Part shown: one piece after another, positions 3,676 to 45,136 of the stretch
Layout: every line of letters starts with the position of its first letter
How positions within the stretch are numbered: position 1 is the first letter of the stretch
Sequence record: NC_016158.1
From: Escherichia phage HK639
Reading direction: 5' to 3' (one strand)
Length of the DNA stretch: 49,576 bases
Made by a program: the position numbers and the translations under genes
The notes under the pieces: model-generated
Told to the model about the DNA's origin: nothing
Seen by the model: only the letters and a program-made list of their open reading frames with translations
Databases searched by the model: none

Positions 3676-4782
3676 ATGGCCCGCTCCGTTAACGACCGCC
3701 TGCAGGACGAAACGATAGCGCACGGCCTGTATGTAAACCGCTACGGTACTGGCGTCGCTCGTCGGATGGTGGCGCTGCTCAGCAAGATGGATGCCGACCT
3801 GGCTGCCAAACTGCTGGTGCTGCTGGATGGTAAGCGTGCCGATACCTACAGCGCTCGCCGCTTGGCTTCGCTGCTGGCTGGTGTGCGCGTACTGAATCAA
3901 CAGGCCTATGAACCGGTGAATGCTGCGCTGGCACGTGAACTGACGCGCTACGTTGAGTATGAGGTCGGTTATCAGTTTGACCTTTTCAGCAACATCATTC
4001 CGAAGCAGATCCTCAGGCATGTACCGCTCCAGAGCATCGCGCCTGAGCAGGTTTACGCCTCAGCAGTGGCTCAGCCATTCCAGGGGCGCTTGCTGAAGGA
4101 GTGGGGCCAGAAGCTTGAAACGGATCGGCTGGATAAAATCACCAACGCTGTGCGCACCGGTTTCCTTCAGGGTGAAACGGTAGATCAGATCGTTAAACGC
4201 GTTGCCGGAACGCAGAAACTCAATCGTGAAGATGGGGTGATTAACGCCTCACGTCGCGACCTGGCGGTGGTGGCCCGCACGGCTGTAAATCACATGGCCG
4301 CTACTGCGCGTCAGGAGTTCGCACAGGGCAACAGCGATATCGTAAAGGCCAAACAGTGGTCCTCAACGCTGGACACTCATACCAGCCAGTGGTGCATTAT
4401 CCGCGACCGAAAGCTTTACACGCTCGACGGCAAGCCGCTGGGGCATGAAATTCCGTATCTGCGCGGACCCGGCAAAATTCATTTCTGCTGTCGCTCCGGT
4501 GAAATCCTGATTACCAAATCGTGGGAAGAGATGCAGATAGCCTCTGGCGAGCTGAGCATCGCCACGCGCGCCTCAATGGACGGACAGGTGCCATCGCATA
4601 CCAGCTATGCCGAATGGCTCGTCAGGCAACCGTACGCACGGCAGGAGCAGGTGCTGGGCGTTACTCGCGCGCGGATGCTGCGTGACGGCAAAATCACGGT
4701 ACCAGAGATGTTCAACGATGCCGGGGAGTTCCTTACCTTGGACGAACTGCGCCGCGTGGATGCGTCGGCGTTTGAGGGGTAA
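3676..4782 (+). CDS. head morphogenesis protein (Mu F / SPP1 gp7-like)
   Basis: ORF 3652..4782; start taken at ATG 3676 just after portal stop; position between portal and scaffold. Confidence 0.55.
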   Translation: MARSVNDRLQDETIAHGLYVNRYGTGVARRMVALLSKMDADLAAKLLVLLDGKRADTYSARRLASLLAGVRVLNQQAYEPVNAALARELTRYVEYEVGYQFDLFSNIIPKQILRHVPLQSIAPEQVYASAVAQPFQGRLLKEWGQKLETDRLDKITNAVRTGFLQGETVDQIVKRVAGTQKLNREDGVINASRRDLAVVARTAVNHMAATARQEFAQGNSDIVKAKQWSSTLDTHTSQWCIIRDRKLYTLDGKPLGHEIPYLRGPGKIHFCCRSGEILITKSWEEMQIASGELSIATRASMDGQVPSHTSYAEWLVRQPYARQEQVLGVTRARMLRDGKITVPEMFNDAGEFLTLDELRRVDASAFEG

Positions 4783-5773: not shown

Positions 5774-6910
5774 ATGTCTAATACTTTGACTGGCCTGATC
5801 CCGACCATTTATACGGCGCTTAACCGCGTTTCACGTGAGCAGGTAGGTTTTATCCCGGCAGTGGCTCGTAACGCTAAGGCCGATGCCGCGGCCAAAGACC
5901 AAACCGTGACCGCACCGGTAGCACCAAAAACCACCACCGTTGATATCACTCCGGCGGCAACCGCGCCAAACGACGGTGATCAGAACATTGGTACCGTGGA
6001 TGTCAAAATCACCAAATCAAAAATGGCTCCGGTCAAATGGAACGGTGAAGAACAGTTGGCGATGGGGCCATCAGGTAACTACGACGTTATCCTTGCCGAT
6101 CAGTTTTCTCAGGCCTTCCGCGCGCTGAGCAACGAAATGGACGCAGACCTGGCTGCGCTGTTCTACAAATCTTCCCGTGCAGTTGGTTCACCAAAAGAGA
6201 CGCCATTCAGCATTAAAGACGATCTGTCTGATGCAGCGCTGGCGCGTCAGATTTTAGTGGATAACGGTGCACCGACTACCGACATGCGCATGGTGCTGGG
6301 CGGCGAAGCGATGGCCTCAATTCGCGGAAAACAGTCGGTTCTGTTCAAAGCGAACGAAGCAGGTACCGATCAGCTTCTGCGTGAAGGTATTATTGGCCGC
6401 GTGATGGGCTTTAACCTTCACGAATCCGCCAACATCAAGCGCACAGCGAAAAGTACGGCGGCGGGCTATACGGTCAACGGCGCGAAGCAGGAAGGCGATA
6501 TCATCATCGCTATCTCCACAGGTACCGGTGGTATCGCAGCAGGCACTGCGGTTAAGTTCGATGGCGACTTTAACCAGTATCTGGTTGTGGCCTCTACGGC
6601 CTCAAGCATCACTATCGCAGCACCGGGACTGCGCCAGGATCTGGCAGACCAGACAGCTATTACCGTTGTGAGCGAATTCACACCAAACATGGCATTCGAC
6701 CGCAATGCTTTCCTGCTGGCGTGCCGCACCCCGGCAATGCCAAAAGGCGGAGACACCGCCGACGATGTGATGAATGTTACCGACCCGGTGTCAGGCATCA
6801 CCTTCCAGATCGCGCTCTATCGCCAGTACCGTCAGGTGCGTTACGAGGTTGGCGTGGCATGGGGTGTGGCATCTGTTCAGCCTGAACACTCCACCATCAT
6901 CATGGGTTAA
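5774..6910 (+). CDS. major capsid protein
   Basis: 378 aa; RBS AAAGGA; follows scaffold gene; strong terminal codon usage consistent with highly expressed structural gene. Confidence 0.7.
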   Translation: MSNTLTGLIPTIYTALNRVSREQVGFIPAVARNAKADAAAKDQTVTAPVAPKTTTVDITPAATAPNDGDQNIGTVDVKITKSKMAPVKWNGEEQLAMGPSGNYDVILADQFSQAFRALSNEMDADLAALFYKSSRAVGSPKETPFSIKDDLSDAALARQILVDNGAPTTDMRMVLGGEAMASIRGKQSVLFKANEAGTDQLLREGIIGRVMGFNLHESANIKRTAKSTAAGYTVNGAKQEGDIIIAISTGTGGIAAGTAVKFDGDFNQYLVVASTASSITIAAPGLRQDLADQTAITVVSEFTPNMAFDRNAFLLACRTPAMPKGGDTADDVMNVTDPVSGITFQIALYRQYRQVRYEVGVAWGVASVQPEHSTIIMG

Positions 6911-23897: not shown

Positions 23898-24023
23898 TTC
23901 AACATTCCTGTTTATGCGGGAACTTCCATTTTATTTGAGTTTAAAAAATAGTCAGATTGATATGAGCGATCAATTTTACACGATTGATCGCTTTTAACGA
24001 TCGTTATTATCGTGAGGTAGTTC

Positions 24024-33763: not shown

Positions 33764-33887
33764 ACTACAAAACATTCCAGTTATTGCCGGGGTATTTATC
33801 CGCGCCCGGCGCGCGCTTTCCCGCTATTCCCCAACAGCAAGAAATCGCTTACTCTTTAATCTCCCCAACAGTAGAAAGGATATATTC

Positions 33888-34109
33888 ATGCAAACCATGC
33901 GGACCGTGTGCCCTGACTGCGGAAGTGAGATGTTCAACCAGCCCGATGATTTTGACTTTGAGACAAATTTCACCGGCGTCAGTTGTGCTGACTGTGGTCG
34001 AGAAATCACTAAGGACGATGTTGTCAATCAGGCCACGGACACGGTCAAAAAACAGATCGACGACATGCTCAGGAATTCCCTGAAAGGAACTGGCTGGAAG
34101 TTCAAGTAA
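33888..34109 (+). CDS. zinc-ribbon protein (CxxC...CxxC), orientation uncertain
   Basis: 73 aa MQTMRTVCPDCGSEM...VSCADCGREI with RBS AAAGGA; antisense ORF 33849..34196 (113 aa, RBS GAGGGG) is an alternative reading. Confidence 0.35.
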   Translation: MQTMRTVCPDCGSEMFNQPDDFDFETNFTGVSCADCGREITKDDVVNQATDTVKKQIDDMLRNSLKGTGWKFK

Positions 34110-34236
34110 CCTTAAAAGCTCCCCGAACTGAGTAAGAACCTCACTGGCGTCTACGTTAAGCAGTAGTGGCGCCGTTTTTTTATCTGCCATACACACCCCT
34201 CTGTTTGTTTACCGTCAGCCCCTCGCAAAGAGCTGC

Positions 34237-34253
34237 TGGTAAATCGTTTAGCC
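34237..34253. promoter_or_regulatory. imperfect inverted repeat TGGTAAA-TCG-TTTAGCC
   Basis: Same half-site family as the perfect palindrome at 34744..34760. Confidence 0.35.
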
Positions 34254-34486
34254 ATAATTGCCGCTCTTCCTGAGCCCGCCTATGGTCCGACGCATGGTTT
34301 ACTGTCGCGCCGTTCGACTGACCGAATCTCCACTTCGCCGCTGGCTAACTTCCCTCAGCTATCGATGTTTCGTTTCGATGGATTAAAGATAACCTTAGTT
34401 ATGAGTGATGGCAATAACCTAATTTATAATATCAATCACATAAGTTATAAATTAATGATAACTAAATGAATTTATTTTTGTAAATC

Positions 34487-34723
34487 ATGAGTGCTATGCT
34501 CACAAAAACAGCAGGAGGGATGTGCATGGTTCTGGATGAAGAGCGTATAAGCATGAAAATTCAGGCGATGGGGCGGGCGGTGATGGAATTGTCACTGGCT
34601 GATTTACCCATGACCCAGCAAAACATCATCGACAAGCTGGAGCAGTACCGGAAGGAAACAGGAAACGTGATAGGGAAGGGCGTGAACAGGGATGCGGCTG
34701 AGATAGTGTGGAAAGGCTTATAG
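34487..34723 (+). CDS. hypothetical small protein (true start may be internal Met)
   Basis: 78 aa; preceded by very AT-rich promoter-like region; weak resemblance of C-terminal part to Hha/YmoA-like proteins, not verifiable. Confidence 0.4.
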   Translation: MSAMLTKTAGGMCMVLDEERISMKIQAMGRAVMELSLADLPMTQQNIIDKLEQYRKETGNVIGKGVNRDAAEIVWKGL

Positions 34724-34760: not shown

Positions 34761-34926
34761 AGGATGACAGCGTTTACCAGAGGGATCGGGTTGTTTACCA
34801 GCTGGCGGGGAATAGACGCCGTTAATGCCAGCATCCCATAATATTCAATTGGTTACGCTGACGTGGTGGTGGTGGTCGAATGGGGATCGGCAGACACAAA
34901 AAACCCGGCGCGGGGCCGGGGAGGGG

Positions 34927-35325
34927 TTAGTTCATTGGAAGAGAAATTCCAGAAACTCCCGCTTGTGCAAGTAGGGTATCAGCGAAGAATTTAAAATAAG
35001 TTTTCATGAACGACGAAAAATACCATGTATTTTCAATAAGAAACGTTTCATCTACAGTTTTATCTTTTGGATATGTATAGACCATCTTCATATCTATTTT
35101 TAAAGAAAACACTTTTGTAGATTTATCAGGACCATAGCTATCAGCAAAGGGACTGGCATGAACGATAATCACTGATAGATCAGGGTTGGAAAGTAGAGTC
35201 CCGCCAGCCTCAAAATTTAAATCGCCATACTCGAAAGTAACCTCTCCGCCATAAGAGTCTCCTAAGCGCGAAATTGCGCTATTAGTTACTGATGCTTCAA
35301 TGAGTTGCAATTCGCTTAATAGCAT
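34927..35325 (-). CDS. hypothetical protein, third gene of Gp49/HigB-like operon
   Basis: 132 aa; start overlaps stop of upstream HTH gene; AT-rich; no recognisable domain. Confidence 0.5.
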   Translation of the reverse strand: MLLSELQLIEASVTNSAISRLGDSYGGEVTFEYGDLNFEAGGTLLSNPDLSVIIVHASPFADSYGPDKSTKVFSLKIDMKMVYTYPKDKTVDETFLIENTWYFSSFMKTYFKFFADTLLAQAGVSGISLPMN

Positions 35326-35750
35326 TTCGTTTGATATTCCGCATTGCTTGTTTTAATAGTAATTTTAATGGTCTGGCCCGGGTTATCGCTAACATCGGCC
35401 GCTTTCCATGAGAGTCGTTTCATATCTGGAATGATGGCATGCGAGACGTCCACTCCTTCTCTTAATATGACAACTTTCGCCACGGCCCCTAAAGCATAGG
35501 CCATATCAGAAAGGGTTTTGAGAGTCATATTCCGAGTGCCGTCGAGCAGCTGGCTTACATGACCTTTAGATTTACCCAATTTTTTAGCTAGCTCGGACTG
35601 AGAAATGTTCGCGTCCTGCATTGCTAAAAGAAGGTCTTCAGTTGTGTTAAAGATCAAGCGCTCACACGCCATCTCTCGCTCACTAACCTCCGGGAAATCA
35701 AAATTATCATCACTAAACAGATTGTTAGCAATCATCATGGCCTCGCTCAA
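35316..35750 (-). CDS. HTH XRE-family protein (HigA-like antitoxin candidate)
   Basis: HTH segment ISQSELAKKLGKSKGHVSQLLDGTRNMTLKTLSDMAYALG; overlaps upstream toxin-like gene. Confidence 0.65.
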   Translation of the reverse strand: MSEAMMIANNLFSDDNFDFPEVSEREMACERLIFNTTEDLLLAMQDANISQSELAKKLGKSKGHVSQLLDGTRNMTLKTLSDMAYALGAVAKVVILREGVDVSHAIIPDMKRLSWKAADVSDNPGQTIKITIKTSNAEYQTKCY

Positions 35751-36018
35751 TTCTTTCCCAATTATTTTTCACCTTTTGGACATCTGAGTCATCAAGTCGG
35801 TCAAAATCTTTGTATATGTAATGACTAATAAAAATCGTCATATCATGTCTGTCAGACTCCCAGTAGTAACCTCTAATCGGAATCTTCTTTATAGCCCAGA
35901 AATTCTTAGCTGGCTTTCCGTTAAACGATGGCAAAATTCCTTCTTTGCGAACACTCAAGTCAGGCGTCCTTTTGCCAGAAGCCAAGCGCTCAAGTTGCAG
36001 GATGAGTGATATCTGCAT
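35725..36018 (-). CDS. Gp49/HigB-like toxin candidate (RelE/ParE superfamily)
   Basis: Track ORF 35725..36129 begins at non-ATG codon; ATG at 36018 with AGAGG RBS gives 97 aa; C-terminal IPIRGYYWESDRHDMTIFISHYIYKDF fits recalled Gp49/HigB pattern. Confidence 0.5.
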   Translation of the reverse strand: MQISLILQLERLASGKRTPDLSVRKEGILPSFNGKPAKNFWAIKKIPIRGYYWESDRHDMTIFISHYIYKDFDRLDDSDVQKVKNNWERIERGHDDC

Positions 36019-36145
36019 ACTTTTCTGCCTCTTTGCAGGAGTAACGCTTTTCAGCGATTCGCTCAGGGATTTCAATGCTCCCTTACAATGCACTATCCGA
36101 TAACACTCACCCTGTATGGAGCCTTTCAATTTATCACCATCTAAG

Positions 36146-36291: not shown

Positions 36292-36981
36292 TCAAAGCTT
36301 GTTGTAAGCAATGGACTCATGGATCAGCGCCTTACCCATGATGTACAGCTGGTCCTGATTTTCTTCTGTCACATACCAGTCTTTGTACGCCGGGTTATCG
36401 GAAAGTACAGCCAACTGCAGACCCTGCATTTGCAGGCGCTTAACGTGGAAGTGCTGCCCGAAGACAAACGCATACACCCCGTCAACTTTGAAGTTCCTCA
36501 CTGAAACGTCAAAGAAGAGGCGATCGCCAGACTGTATTGTCGGGCACATGCTGTCGCCGTCTACGGTCATCACCTTCACATCATTTTGAGTGCGGTTCCC
36601 GAAAAGAGATCTGGCATGCTCAGTTGTGAACTCAATAGCATGCAGGACCTCAACAAATTCAGAAATCATAAAAGACCCCGGACCAGCGCTTACTTTCAGG
36701 TCTAAAACATCAACCCGAAAGACATCAATTGTTTCCGAGACCGGTTGGGCCGCCGATGGCACATTACCATCAATCCGCATTTCCCCCACTCCAGAACTAA
36801 GCCATTCCGGCCTTACACCCAGAGCATGAGCTAGCTCGACCATCTTACGGCTGCCGCTCGTTTTACCTGATGTCATCTTTTGAATTGCAGGCTGGGATAT
36901 ACCGACTTTATCAGCCAACTGTCCTTGAGATATGTCAGCGGCCGACATAGCCGCGTTCAGTCGTTCTGCAAATGTTTTCAT
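36292..36981 (-). CDS. cI: CI-type prophage repressor (HTH plus S24 peptidase domain)
   Basis: N-terminal HTH QGQLADKVGISQPAIQKMTSGK; C-terminal S24 domain with GDSM motif (VDGDSMCPTI) and conserved Lys region; divergent from cro. Confidence 0.85.
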   Translation of the reverse strand: MKTFAERLNAAMSAADISQGQLADKVGISQPAIQKMTSGKTSGSRKMVELAHALGVRPEWLSSGVGEMRIDGNVPSAAQPVSETIDVFRVDVLDLKVSAGPGSFMISEFVEVLHAIEFTTEHARSLFGNRTQNDVKVMTVDGDSMCPTIQSGDRLFFDVSVRNFKVDGVYAFVFGQHFHVKRLQMQGLQLAVLSDNPAYKDWYVTEENQDQLYIMGKALIHESIAYNKL

Positions 36982-36992
36982 CTTATCAATAT

Positions 36993-37056
36993 ATAACCGA
37001 GGTTATGTAGAGTAAAATAACAAAGGTTATGGACAATGCCCATAACTTGGGTTATC
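36993..37056. promoter_or_regulatory. oR-like operator region with ATAACC/GGTTAT half-sites
   Basis: ATAACC-GA-GGTTAT (36993..37006), lone GGTTAT (37025..37030), ATAAC-TTGG-GTTAT (37043..37055) in the cI-cro intergenic region. Confidence 0.55.
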
Positions 37057-37091
37057 TTTTCATTAATCCAGTAATCGGATAGGTAAAATCC

Positions 37092-37319
37092 ATGAACAAA
37101 GTTATTCAACGAGCTTTAGAAATCGTTGGCAGCCAGAAGCGACTCGCAGATATTTGCGGCGTTAGCCAGCCAGCGGTTCACAAGTGGCTTAACGGTGGTT
37201 CCGTATCTCCGGAAAAAGTAACAGCCATCGTAAACGCTACTGGTGGCGAGATTAAGGCACACGAAATTCGACCTGATCTTCCCGACCTGTTTCCACACCC
37301 AGAGAACCATGCCGCTTAA
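37092..37319 (+). CDS. cro: Cro-like HTH regulator
   Basis: 75 aa; HTH RLADICGVSQPAVHKWLNG; divergent from cI across operator region. Confidence 0.7.
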   Translation: MNKVIQRALEIVGSQKRLADICGVSQPAVHKWLNGGSVSPEKVTAIVNATGGEIKAHEIRPDLPDLFPHPENHAA

Positions 37320-37348: not shown

Positions 37349-37894
37349 ATGCATTCACTTGCGTATCAACAAGGTAACAAATTTTCGCCAACGGCGATGA
37401 TTTACCAGAATCGCCGGGAGCCTGATTCCGCGGCGTTAAACATCGATGGGATTCGCGCAGCGGTTCGCGCCTGGGCAGCTGATTGCCGCAGCCGTGAATT
37501 TGTCGCCGCTCTGATTGTTGAAGAGTGGCGGGCAATCGGCGGCACCGGACTTGATATCCCGACTGACTCACACCGCCAGATGCAGAAGGTGTTCCGCTGG
37601 ATCGACGGGGACACCGAATATGCGGCCAACAACATTCGCCAGCTGGCACCGGCAATCATGGCCGTGCTGCCGCTGGAGTACCGCAACCGCCTGGCACCGC
37701 AGAACGACACGATGTCGCTAATCGCCTCTGCAATGAAAGAGTGTGCCGAGGCTAAACAGGCCGTGCTGCTGGACGCTCCAGAGCATCAGAAGCTGAAAGA
37801 GGTAAGCGAGGGTATAGCGTCGCTGTTCCGCCTCATGCCGGAGCAGGTAGGGCCGTTGATGACGATGGTGACGTCGATGCTGGGGGTTATGTGA
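37349..37894 (+). CDS. CII-like / YdaT-like regulatory protein
   Basis: 181 aa directly after cro; position and size consistent with CII-like family. Confidence 0.5.
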   Translation: MHSLAYQQGNKFSPTAMIYQNRREPDSAALNIDGIRAAVRAWAADCRSREFVAALIVEEWRAIGGTGLDIPTDSHRQMQKVFRWIDGDTEYAANNIRQLAPAIMAVLPLEYRNRLAPQNDTMSLIASAMKECAEAKQAVLLDAPEHQKLKEVSEGIASLFRLMPEQVGPLMTMVTSMLGVM

Positions 37895-44362: not shown

Positions 44363-44437
44363 GGGTCAGAAGCACAGCGGTTGTGCGTTCGGCTGTTAAC
44401 CGAATGGTCGAAGGTTCGAATCCTTCCTGTCCCGCCA
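44363..44437 (+). tRNA. tRNA-Asn (anticodon GUU), phage-encoded, one U-U mismatch in acceptor stem
   Basis: Manual fold: acceptor GGGTCAG/CTGTCCC, D-stem GCAC/GTGC, anticodon stem TTCGG/CCGAA with loop CTGTTAA, T-arm GAAGG-TTCGAAT-CCTTC, discriminator G, CCA. Confidence 0.6.
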
Positions 44438-44776: not shown

Positions 44777-44806
44777 TTGACTGCAGGAATAAGTTCGGCG
44801 TAATTT
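44777..44806 (+). promoter_or_regulatory. candidate late promoter (pR'-like): TTGACT-18 bp-TAATTT
   Basis: -35 TTGACT and -10 TAATTT resemble recalled lambda pR' hexamers; about 170 nt upstream of a strong terminator. Confidence 0.35.
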
Positions 44807-44952
44807 ATTTCTGTGGTGAATCCTTTCTAAGCGAAAGGGCGTTCCAGCCAACTGCTATCTGCAGGTATGCGCGCGACTTTGCTGGCTGGAGTAGAGTCAC
44901 CGGGAGGCACCCGGCACCATGACAACAACAATACAGTTTCAAATTCCTTGAG

Positions 44953-44981
44953 AGCCTGCCGTAAAAAGCAGGCCTTTTTTT
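44953..44981 (+). terminator. rho-independent terminator (tR'-like candidate)
   Basis: GCCTGC-CGTAAAAA-GCAGGC plus TTTTTTT. Confidence 0.6.
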
Positions 44982-45136
44982 ATGAAATTGCGAACTGCTG
45001 CTACGCTTGAAAAGTGGGTTGAAGATAACTGCCTGATGGTTCTCCTGAACCATAGTGAATCAGCCTGATACTGTCTCACTCTGGTCAGTTAGCAAAACTC
45101 ACGACTACCTACCTTACTTACTAATAGTCACTCATT

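Follow-up and report, generated by a model that had tools for sequence, protein, structure and literature searches.

Which proteins bind the repeats between the divergent cI and cro genes of Escherichia phage HK639, and do these repeats set the immunity specificity of the phage? We addressed this question in a window of 49,576 nucleotides (sequence record NC_016158.1; the window is the whole stretch of DNA that was analysed). An earlier note on this DNA had described two inverted repeats and a lone half-site between the cI and cro starts, built from ATAACC/GGTTAT half-sites, and had read them as a tripartite oR-like switch whose half-site defines the immunity specificity of the phage. The gap between the leftward cI-like gene and the rightward cro-like gene runs from 36982 to 37091. 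The genes, predicted operators and predicted promoters in and around it are:

36292..36981, minus strand: cI-like repressor of 229 aa (Pfam HTH_3 and Peptidase_S24)
36993-37006: OR3-like predicted operator ATAACCGAGGTTAT, overlying the PRM spacer and the first base of the PRM -10; conserved in relatives
37017-37030: OR2-like predicted operator ATAACAAAGGTTAT, abutting the PRM -35 and sharing the first base of the PR -35; conserved in relatives
37042-37055: OR1-like predicted operator ATAACTTGGGTTAT, overlying the PR spacer and the first three bases of the PR -10; conserved in relatives
37016..36988, minus strand: predicted PRM, with -35 TTTACT (37016..37011), a 17-nt spacer and -10 TATATT (36993..36988), from a promoter scan
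37030-37058, plus strand: predicted PR, with -35 TGGACA (37030-37035), a 17-nt spacer and -10 TATCTT (37053-37058), from a promoter scan
37092..37319, plus strand: Cro-like protein of 75 aa (Pfam YdaS_toxin and P22_Cro), with helix S-Q-P-A-V-H-K-W
37349..37894, plus strand: cII-like activator of the YdaT family, phi80-cII type (Pfam YdaT_toxin; phrog_163, CII-like)

The position of the repeats and their half-site were confirmed at 36993-37055, but their number was wrong: the gap contains three complete 14-bp palindromes of the form ATAAC-N4-GTTAT, with start-to-start spacings of 24 and 25 bp, and no lone half-site. The symmetry axis of these operators lies between base pairs (an even axis). 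An unbiased repeat search also recovered the palindromes as a family of three copies. The half-site itself stood as ATAAC/GTTAT, a conserved core of 5+5 bp; its sixth base is merely preferred, with C at 7 of the 12 positions that the six sites in the window provide (our own count), while the outer bases ATAA...TTAT occur in all six. The weak preference at the sixth base is probably why a strict ATAACC/GGTTAT reading found fewer palindromes.

The intergenic region is rich in AT and has many promoter-like hexamers, so that the repeats might be chance products of a promoter region, with no sequence-specific role. The counts contradict this. The exact pattern ATAACNNNNGTTAT occurs four times in the 49.6 kb, against 0.02 matches expected, and none of 100 shuffles reached four. 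With at most one mismatch there are eight matches in the window against 0.70 expected, and six of these eight lie in two clusters of three, the second of them at the leftward promoter PL. Moreover, in alignments with relatives at about 70% DNA identity the half-site columns are invariant, whereas the central four bases and the spacers vary. We regard the chance reading as already refuted and give it practically no weight. The palindromes at 36993-37055 are almost certainly operators of cI and Cro.

The two remaining one-mismatch matches, single sites at 23994 and 28717, were set aside, as their number is about the chance level (0.7 expected). We also rejected ATGAACAAAGTTAT at the cro start (37092-37105) as a fourth site. 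It has two mismatches, and consists of the first 14 bases of cro, which code for the conserved N-terminus MNKVI and form inverted repeats with OR1 and OR2. Since the relatives among the Stx1 phages do not keep it, its likeness to an operator probably arises by coincidence from the conserved coding for MNKVI.

The three palindromes overlap divergent sigma-70-like promoters of cro and cI, in agreement with the tripartite oR-like switch that had been proposed. The predicted PR, PRM and PL are consensus matches of 9/12 each, in a region with a total of 10 such matches against 6.2 expected. PR is predicted to start near 37065 and to drive cro and the cII-like gene. In the other direction, the A of the cI ATG (36981) lies 7 nt beyond the PRM -10, and the centre of OR2 lies 42.5 bp from the cI start codon. 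The short distance from the -10 to the ATG predicts a leaderless cI mRNA, by analogy with lambda cI and with paaR2 of CP-933P, for which a leaderless mRNA has been shown (PMC8630535).

The earlier note had proposed to look for the same half-sites near the leftward early promoter. A second triplet of palindromes of the same type was indeed found there, at 34389-34448 over a leftward promoter, so that a lack of such sites at any leftward promoter, which the note had named as grounds for refuting its reading, was not observed. The triplet is headed by an exact match:

34389-34402: OL1-like predicted operator ATAACCTTAGTTAT, an exact match over the PL -10 and spacer; conserved in relatives
34414-34427: OL2-like predicted operator ATAACCTAATTTAT, one mismatch, with a one-base overlap with the PL -35; conserved in relatives
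34435-34448: OL3-like predicted operator ATCACATAAGTTAT, one mismatch, 21 bp from OL2; conserved in relatives
34414..34386, minus strand: predicted PL, with -35 TTGCCA (34414..34409), a 17-nt spacer and -10 TATCTT (34391..34386), from a promoter scan

The geometry of PL relative to OL1 and OL2 is identical to that of PR relative to OR1 and OR2. The sequence CCATCGAAACGAAACATCGA... starts four bases after the PL -10, and the same sequence follows the annotated phi80 pL -10; the conserved leader CCATCGAAACG likewise stands at a 4-nt offset from the PL -10, which is the offset from the annotated phi80 pL -10. Because the two -10 elements align, PL rests on positional homology as well as on its consensus match. 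The PL transcript is predicted to start near 34379, the point from which the sequence is homologous to the phi80 pL leader. Genes for Kil, a Gam-like protein, RecT, a Mu-Gam-like protein and a methyltransferase lie leftward of PL and constitute an early-left operon.

Several further features lie around PL. The phi80 homology of the PL leader (34197-34381, minus strand) begins at the PL transcription start. The window has no counterpart of the phi80 boxA, nor did we recognise an N-like ORF. Leftward of PL, the first ORF (33849-34196) encodes an acidic protein with only a weak PHROG match and overlaps a zinc-ribbon-like ORF on the plus strand (33891-34109; phrog_4852). The segment 34256-34326 is 90% identical to the Salmonella P22-like phages S9-5 and ABTNLsp11242. 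OL3 is directly followed on its right by a small conserved ORF (34487-34723, plus strand; phrog_3975) that runs against the direction of PL and is likely to start at 34521 or 34527 after AGGAGG. It is present in 33 of the 39 loci of the window type (type A, below), and its DNA is 83-86% identical to an unannotated stretch beside the phi80 OL. By our own reading of the sequence, a promoter-like TTTATA-17-TATAAA at 34423-34451 would overlap OL2 and OL3. Rfam gave no match in the immunity region. In the late region of the window we found a tRNA gene (44363-44434; 63.9 bits) and, at 44780-44985, a segment that matches the sRNA family STnc100 (52.6 bits, gathering score 47).

The recognition helix of the cI-like repressor is S29-Q-P-A-I-Q-K-M36. 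In the PDB, its N-terminal domain comes closest to the repressor and Cro of phage 434 (E 1e-8 to 9e-7); the alignment to the N-terminal domain of the 434 repressor (E 1e-8) is ungapped over 60 residues, with 34-40% identity. An AlphaFold model (mean pLDDT 79) gave TM scores of 0.80-0.92 to 434 Cro and repressor and of 0.87 to P22 c2, and the modelled C-terminal domain superposes on lambda CI, LexA and UmuD. The S24 domain contains the Ala-Gly site VSA-GPG at residues 98 and 99, the serine of GDSM and the lysine of VKRL; their invariance in the family alignment leads us to expect SOS-induced self-cleavage of cI. The Cro-like protein matched Xfaso1 Cro and XPH1 in the PDB. It belongs to the YdaS / P22-Cro lineage, unlike the N-terminal domain of cI.

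The operators of phage 434 are 14 bp long, with the sequence ACAA-N6-TTGT, and in its co-crystals Gln28 is responsible for recognising the A at position 1 of the operator, and Gln29 for position 2. The window resembles 434 not only in the structure closest to the N-terminal domain of its repressor, but also in the 14-bp operators with conserved outer bases and a variable centre. In the alignment Gln28 has its counterpart in Q30, and both phages have A at operator position 1. In contrast, Gln29 is replaced by Pro31 and Gln33 by Lys35, and the operator has T rather than C at position 2 and a conserved fifth base (C). This pairing of helix and operator positions, Q30 with A at position 1 and Pro31 with T at position 2, would be consistent with the 434 mode of readout. 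The outer bases are ATAA...TTAT instead of ACAA...TTGT, the helix SQPAIQK differs from TQQSIEQ and does not follow the Gln28-Gln29-x-x-x-Gln33 pattern, and the window Cro, unlike that of 434, is no paralogue of the N-terminal domain of cI. In view of these differences in operator, helix and Cro, the phage is predicted to be heteroimmune to 434.

From a scan of viral contigs we obtained 80 loci, 37 of them with an essentially identical repressor; the window takes part in this comparison as IMG/VR contig UViG_2597490004_000001. The OR triplet is present in all 37 IMG/VR loci with the N-terminal domain of the window, and the OL triplet wherever the sequence extends far enough. Altogether, the sites are kept in 39 of the 39 loci with a repressor N-terminal domain of the window type. 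Both the exact repressor and the exact Cro were found on 1000 or more contigs each; for the repressor, most of these belong to the Enterobacter cloacae complex. A megablast search of E. coli genomes gave only one related prophage.

More distant relatives carry the same sites under a different C-terminal domain. The prophage of E. coli ET729 has 91.6% DNA identity to the window from about cI codon 62 to the end of cro. In the Stx1-converting phages PA28 and SH2026Stx1, DNA identity to the window is about 70%, and their cI N-terminal domains are 83-85% identical to that of the window. In all three, the S24 C-terminal domain is unrelated to that of the window, and overall cI identity is about 40%. 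All three share the cI helix SQPAIQKM and the Cro helix (S/T)QPAVHKW with the window, as well as the same three OR palindromes at spacings of 24 and 25 bp (OR2 of PA28 is ACAACAATTGTTAT) and matching OL sites upstream of N genes or of the early-left operon; SH2026Stx1 shows only two clear OL sites of the ATAAC-N4-GTTAT type. PA28 and SH2026Stx1 have other backbones (Traversvirus, short-tailed Stx phages). The Stx1 phages PA28 and SH2026Stx1, related Stx1a phages and the ET729 prophage have the same helices and the same operator type as the window, and we predict that they and the window phage are homoimmune. An extra GGTTAT half-site lies just downstream of the PR -10 in SH2026Stx1 and PA28 (4294-4299 in locus L002 and 4284-4289 in locus L003) and is absent from the window and from the ET729 prophage.

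Between cI and OL lies a small group of genes that ends in a terminator:

34927-36129, minus strand: three genes that follow cI in the same orientation, orf134, orf144 (HTH_3) and orf132 (phrog_19522)
34895-34920: strong terminator that ends this cargo cassette downstream of cI

PADLOC and NCBIfam searches with the cargo genes found no defence or toxin-antitoxin family, only a generic HTH. The cassette occurs in only 2 of the 39 site-bearing loci, and among the type-A IMG/VR loci OL lies between 1.1 and 2.8 kb from the cI stop, at no fewer than 23 different distances. Hence, the interval between cI and OL is a hypervariable cargo slot, in the position of rexAB in lambda.

The presence of orf144 (35316-35750, minus strand), which has an HTH_3 domain and is co-oriented with cI, raises the question whether another regulator binds the palindromes, be it this cargo protein, the cII-like activator or a host factor. 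The distribution of the genes makes this highly improbable. The cassette is nearly always missing from site-bearing loci, and the cII-like protein ranges from 35 to 100% identity; 11 of the 39 loci, some of them incomplete, gave no match that reached 60% coverage. In contrast, the N-terminal domain of cI and cro are present in 39/39, and the half-site covaries with the helices of cI and Cro. Therefore, the sites belong to cI and Cro, and the cII-like gene is context outside the specificity module.

We then have to ask whether the half-site follows the helices when these change. Loci with a similar C-terminal domain (75-81% identity overall) and other N-terminal domains carry a different 14-bp palindrome at the same OR positions, and have their own OL clusters; ATAAC-N4-GTTAT was absent from the IMG/VR loci of this kind. 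Six repressor types (loci L040-L083) share the similar S24 C-terminal domain and a junction motif (R/M/S)P(E/D)WLS.G:

Type A (window): cI helix SQPAIQK, Cro helix SQPAVHK, half-site ATAAC
Types B and C: cI helix SQAAIQK, Cro helix SQQAVYK or SQAAVQK, half-site ACAAC
Type D: cI helix AQSSVNK, Cro helix AQST(V/I)CD, half-site ATCGC
Type E: cI helix QPSVWK, Cro helix QP(S/T)VWA, half-site ATAGC
Type F: cI helix AQPTIWR, Cro helix AQPTVWR, half-site ATACG

Across the six types the cI helix, the Cro helix and the half-site change together, and the two helices are near-identical within every type. A cross-matrix of repressor type against palindrome type is diagonal. Exchange among the types is bounded by the region around cI residues 62-70 on one side and by the end of cro on the other. 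In sister types B and C, the palindrome ACAAC-N4-GTTGT fits the 434-type operator ACAA-N6-TTGT. That the half-site sets the immunity specificity, as originally suggested, is supported by this comparison of sequences: the same C-terminal domain with another helix goes with another palindrome.

The helices and half-sites were also compared with a published recognition code for Cro proteins (Hall, Lefevre and Cordes 2005), in the form in which it is summarised in PMC6649833. According to this summary, Gln at H1 goes with adenine and Pro with thymine at +2, Ala at H3 with adenine and Ser or Thr with guanine at +5, and Lys at H6 with cytosine and Gln with guanine at +6. The window Cro reads S Q P A V H K W from H0 to H7, that is, Q at H1, A at H3 and K at H6. 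From these residues, the summarised code predicts A at both +2 and +5 and C at +6, and the half-site nATAAC matches all three. In the same form, the code fits types E and D (Ser or Thr at H3, G at +5), and it fits the type of locus L084 (Pro at H1, T at +2). Type F breaks it at H3/+5, with Thr at H3 and the half-site ATACG. Furthermore, we observed that H2 tracks position +3 within the six types, with Pro or Ser going with T and Ala or Gln with C.

Locus L084 is unusual in its operators. Its cI-cro gap (3833-3903) contains three TTAAC-N5-GTTAA palindromes, and its repressor and Cro have the helices TTPGVWKW and SPVAVHRW, respectively. The OL of this locus (5795-5854) is a triplet of the window type, ATAAC-N4-GTTAT, without any TTAAC-N5-GTTAA site. 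With an OR of one type and an OL of another, this locus implies that agreement between OR and OL is not absolute. L084 may be a recombinant defective prophage, a prophage that depends on a co-resident phage, or an assembly chimera.

Comparison with the known lambdoid immunity groups, as the earlier note had advised, revealed that the operator of the window differs from those of lambda, 434, phi80, 933W, BAA2326, N15 and CP-933P. The layout is much like that of lambda. Both phages have divergent cI (HTH and S24) and cro genes, with three imperfect palindromes about 24 bp apart over PR and PRM and with the centre of OR2 near -42 relative to PRM; for the window, the cI mRNA is predicted to be leaderless. 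As in lambda, PL has a triplet of its own some 2.6 kb away, and the interval between cI and OL holds additional lysogen-expressed genes, in the rexAB position. The recognition elements are unlike those of lambda. The window operator is 14 bp long with its axis between base pairs, whereas the lambda operator is 17 bp long with its axis on a base pair, and the half-site is ATAAC instead of TATCAC (lambda operator TATCACCGCCAGTGGTA; PMC5977221). Moreover, the 434-like N-terminal domain of the window repressor lacks the N-terminal arm of the lambda type, and the window Cro is all-helical, of the YdaS / P22-Cro type, while lambda Cro has an alpha+beta fold.

With phi80 the window shares the gene order and the layout of three plus three operators, as well as the pL leader from the transcription start, the small ORF beside OL and the start of the YdaT-type cII. 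However, the annotated phi80 operators are 19 bp long and differ in sequence (e.g. AATTAACATGGTGTTGATT), and cI-OR-cro shows no DNA similarity between the two phages. The window phage and phi80 are heteroimmune. Immunity of the 933W type was considered, as the Cro of PA28 is annotated as '933W Cro', and was rejected, since the 933W operators are 15 bp long with a central position 8 (PMC3317979), against the 14 bp and even axis of the window. PaaR2/YdaS of CP-933P, with the same Cro and cII families, was likewise rejected as a system of the same specificity, its palindromes being 18 bp long and of the GTTTAGTAA type (PMC8630535). The BAA2326 sites contain ATAACC and GGTTAT; they are different and only weakly symmetric (PMC5977221). 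The N15 operator, TTATAGCTAGCTATAA, also differs from that of the window (PMC6649833). We found no description of ATAAC-N4-GTTAT operators, neither for this operator nor for the operators of Stx1 phages, in the literature searched, to which older papers on Stx1-phage immunity did not belong.

Taken together, the sites at 36993-37055, as OR3, OR2 and OR1, and those at 34389-34448, as OL1-3, probably form a bistable switch of the lambda type. Occupancy order, cooperativity, activation of PRM and looping between OL and OR are taken from lambda and 434 in the following scheme. Repressor dimers would bind each palindrome through a helix-turn-helix of the 434 type, with SQPAIQK reading the outer ATAAC and the central 4 bp remaining uncontacted. 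Occupation of OR1 and OR2, and of OL1 and OL2, would block PR and PL, while the dimer at OR2 (centre at -42.5) would aid RNA polymerase at a weak PRM, from which the leaderless cI mRNA would be made. At high repressor levels, OR3 would shut PRM. Upon SOS induction, RecA-dependent cleavage at the Ala-Gly site of the S24 domain would allow PR to fire, and Cro, whose helix SQPAVHK is nearly that of cI, would bind the same sites and silence PRM. One could speculate that OR3 is the weakest repressor site, because its centre is the most G+C-rich of the three in 4 of the 4 type-A relatives (CGAG, TCAG, TACG and CACG, compared to AAAG or AATT at OR2); this idea draws on an analogy with indirect readout in 434.

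The operators could be real and yet obey a logic other than that of lambda, with non-cooperative binding or another order of affinities, as in 933W, or with Cro acting on a subset of the sites, as in PY54. [quoted passage not shown] However, the spacing of 24/25 bp, OR2 at -42.5 and the identical geometry of PR and PL match the cooperative layout of lambda and 434, and the helices of Cro and cI are near-identical within each type. We therefore consider such a departure from lambda rather unlikely, and keep the lambda-type switch as our working model.

The best explanation of the data is that a module made up of OR, cro and the first 65 or so residues of cI, with the same sites carried by OL, sets the immunity group, because recognition is defined by the 5-bp outer half-site and the two helices alone. 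The switch itself appears to be an ordinary one of the lambda type and of textbook design, with an operator sequence and immunity specificity that are apparently uncharacterised. The value added by the allelic series of helices and operators and by the predicted homoimmunity with Stx1 phages is modest. One C-terminal domain combined with six helix/operator combinations offers a natural series for the rules of DNA recognition by helix-turn-helix proteins, and the six-type repressor family could supply orthogonal repressor-operator pairs.

For the phages themselves, these results define the immunity specificity of a prophage that is very common in the Enterobacter cloacae complex, and predict which phages it would exclude or cross-repress, including Stx1 phages of E. 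coli. We tentatively suggest, as a possibility somewhat short of an even chance, that the specificity cassette (cI 1 to about 65, OR, cro and a matching OL) is portable and common to phi80-like prophages of the Enterobacter cloacae complex and to Stx1 phages of E. coli O157, and that the H2/+3 rule can be added to the Cro/CI code. If this cassette is indeed portable, homoimmunity would extend across genera, and a resident repressor of the Enterobacter type would hold PR and PL of an Stx1 phage, whether incoming or co-resident.
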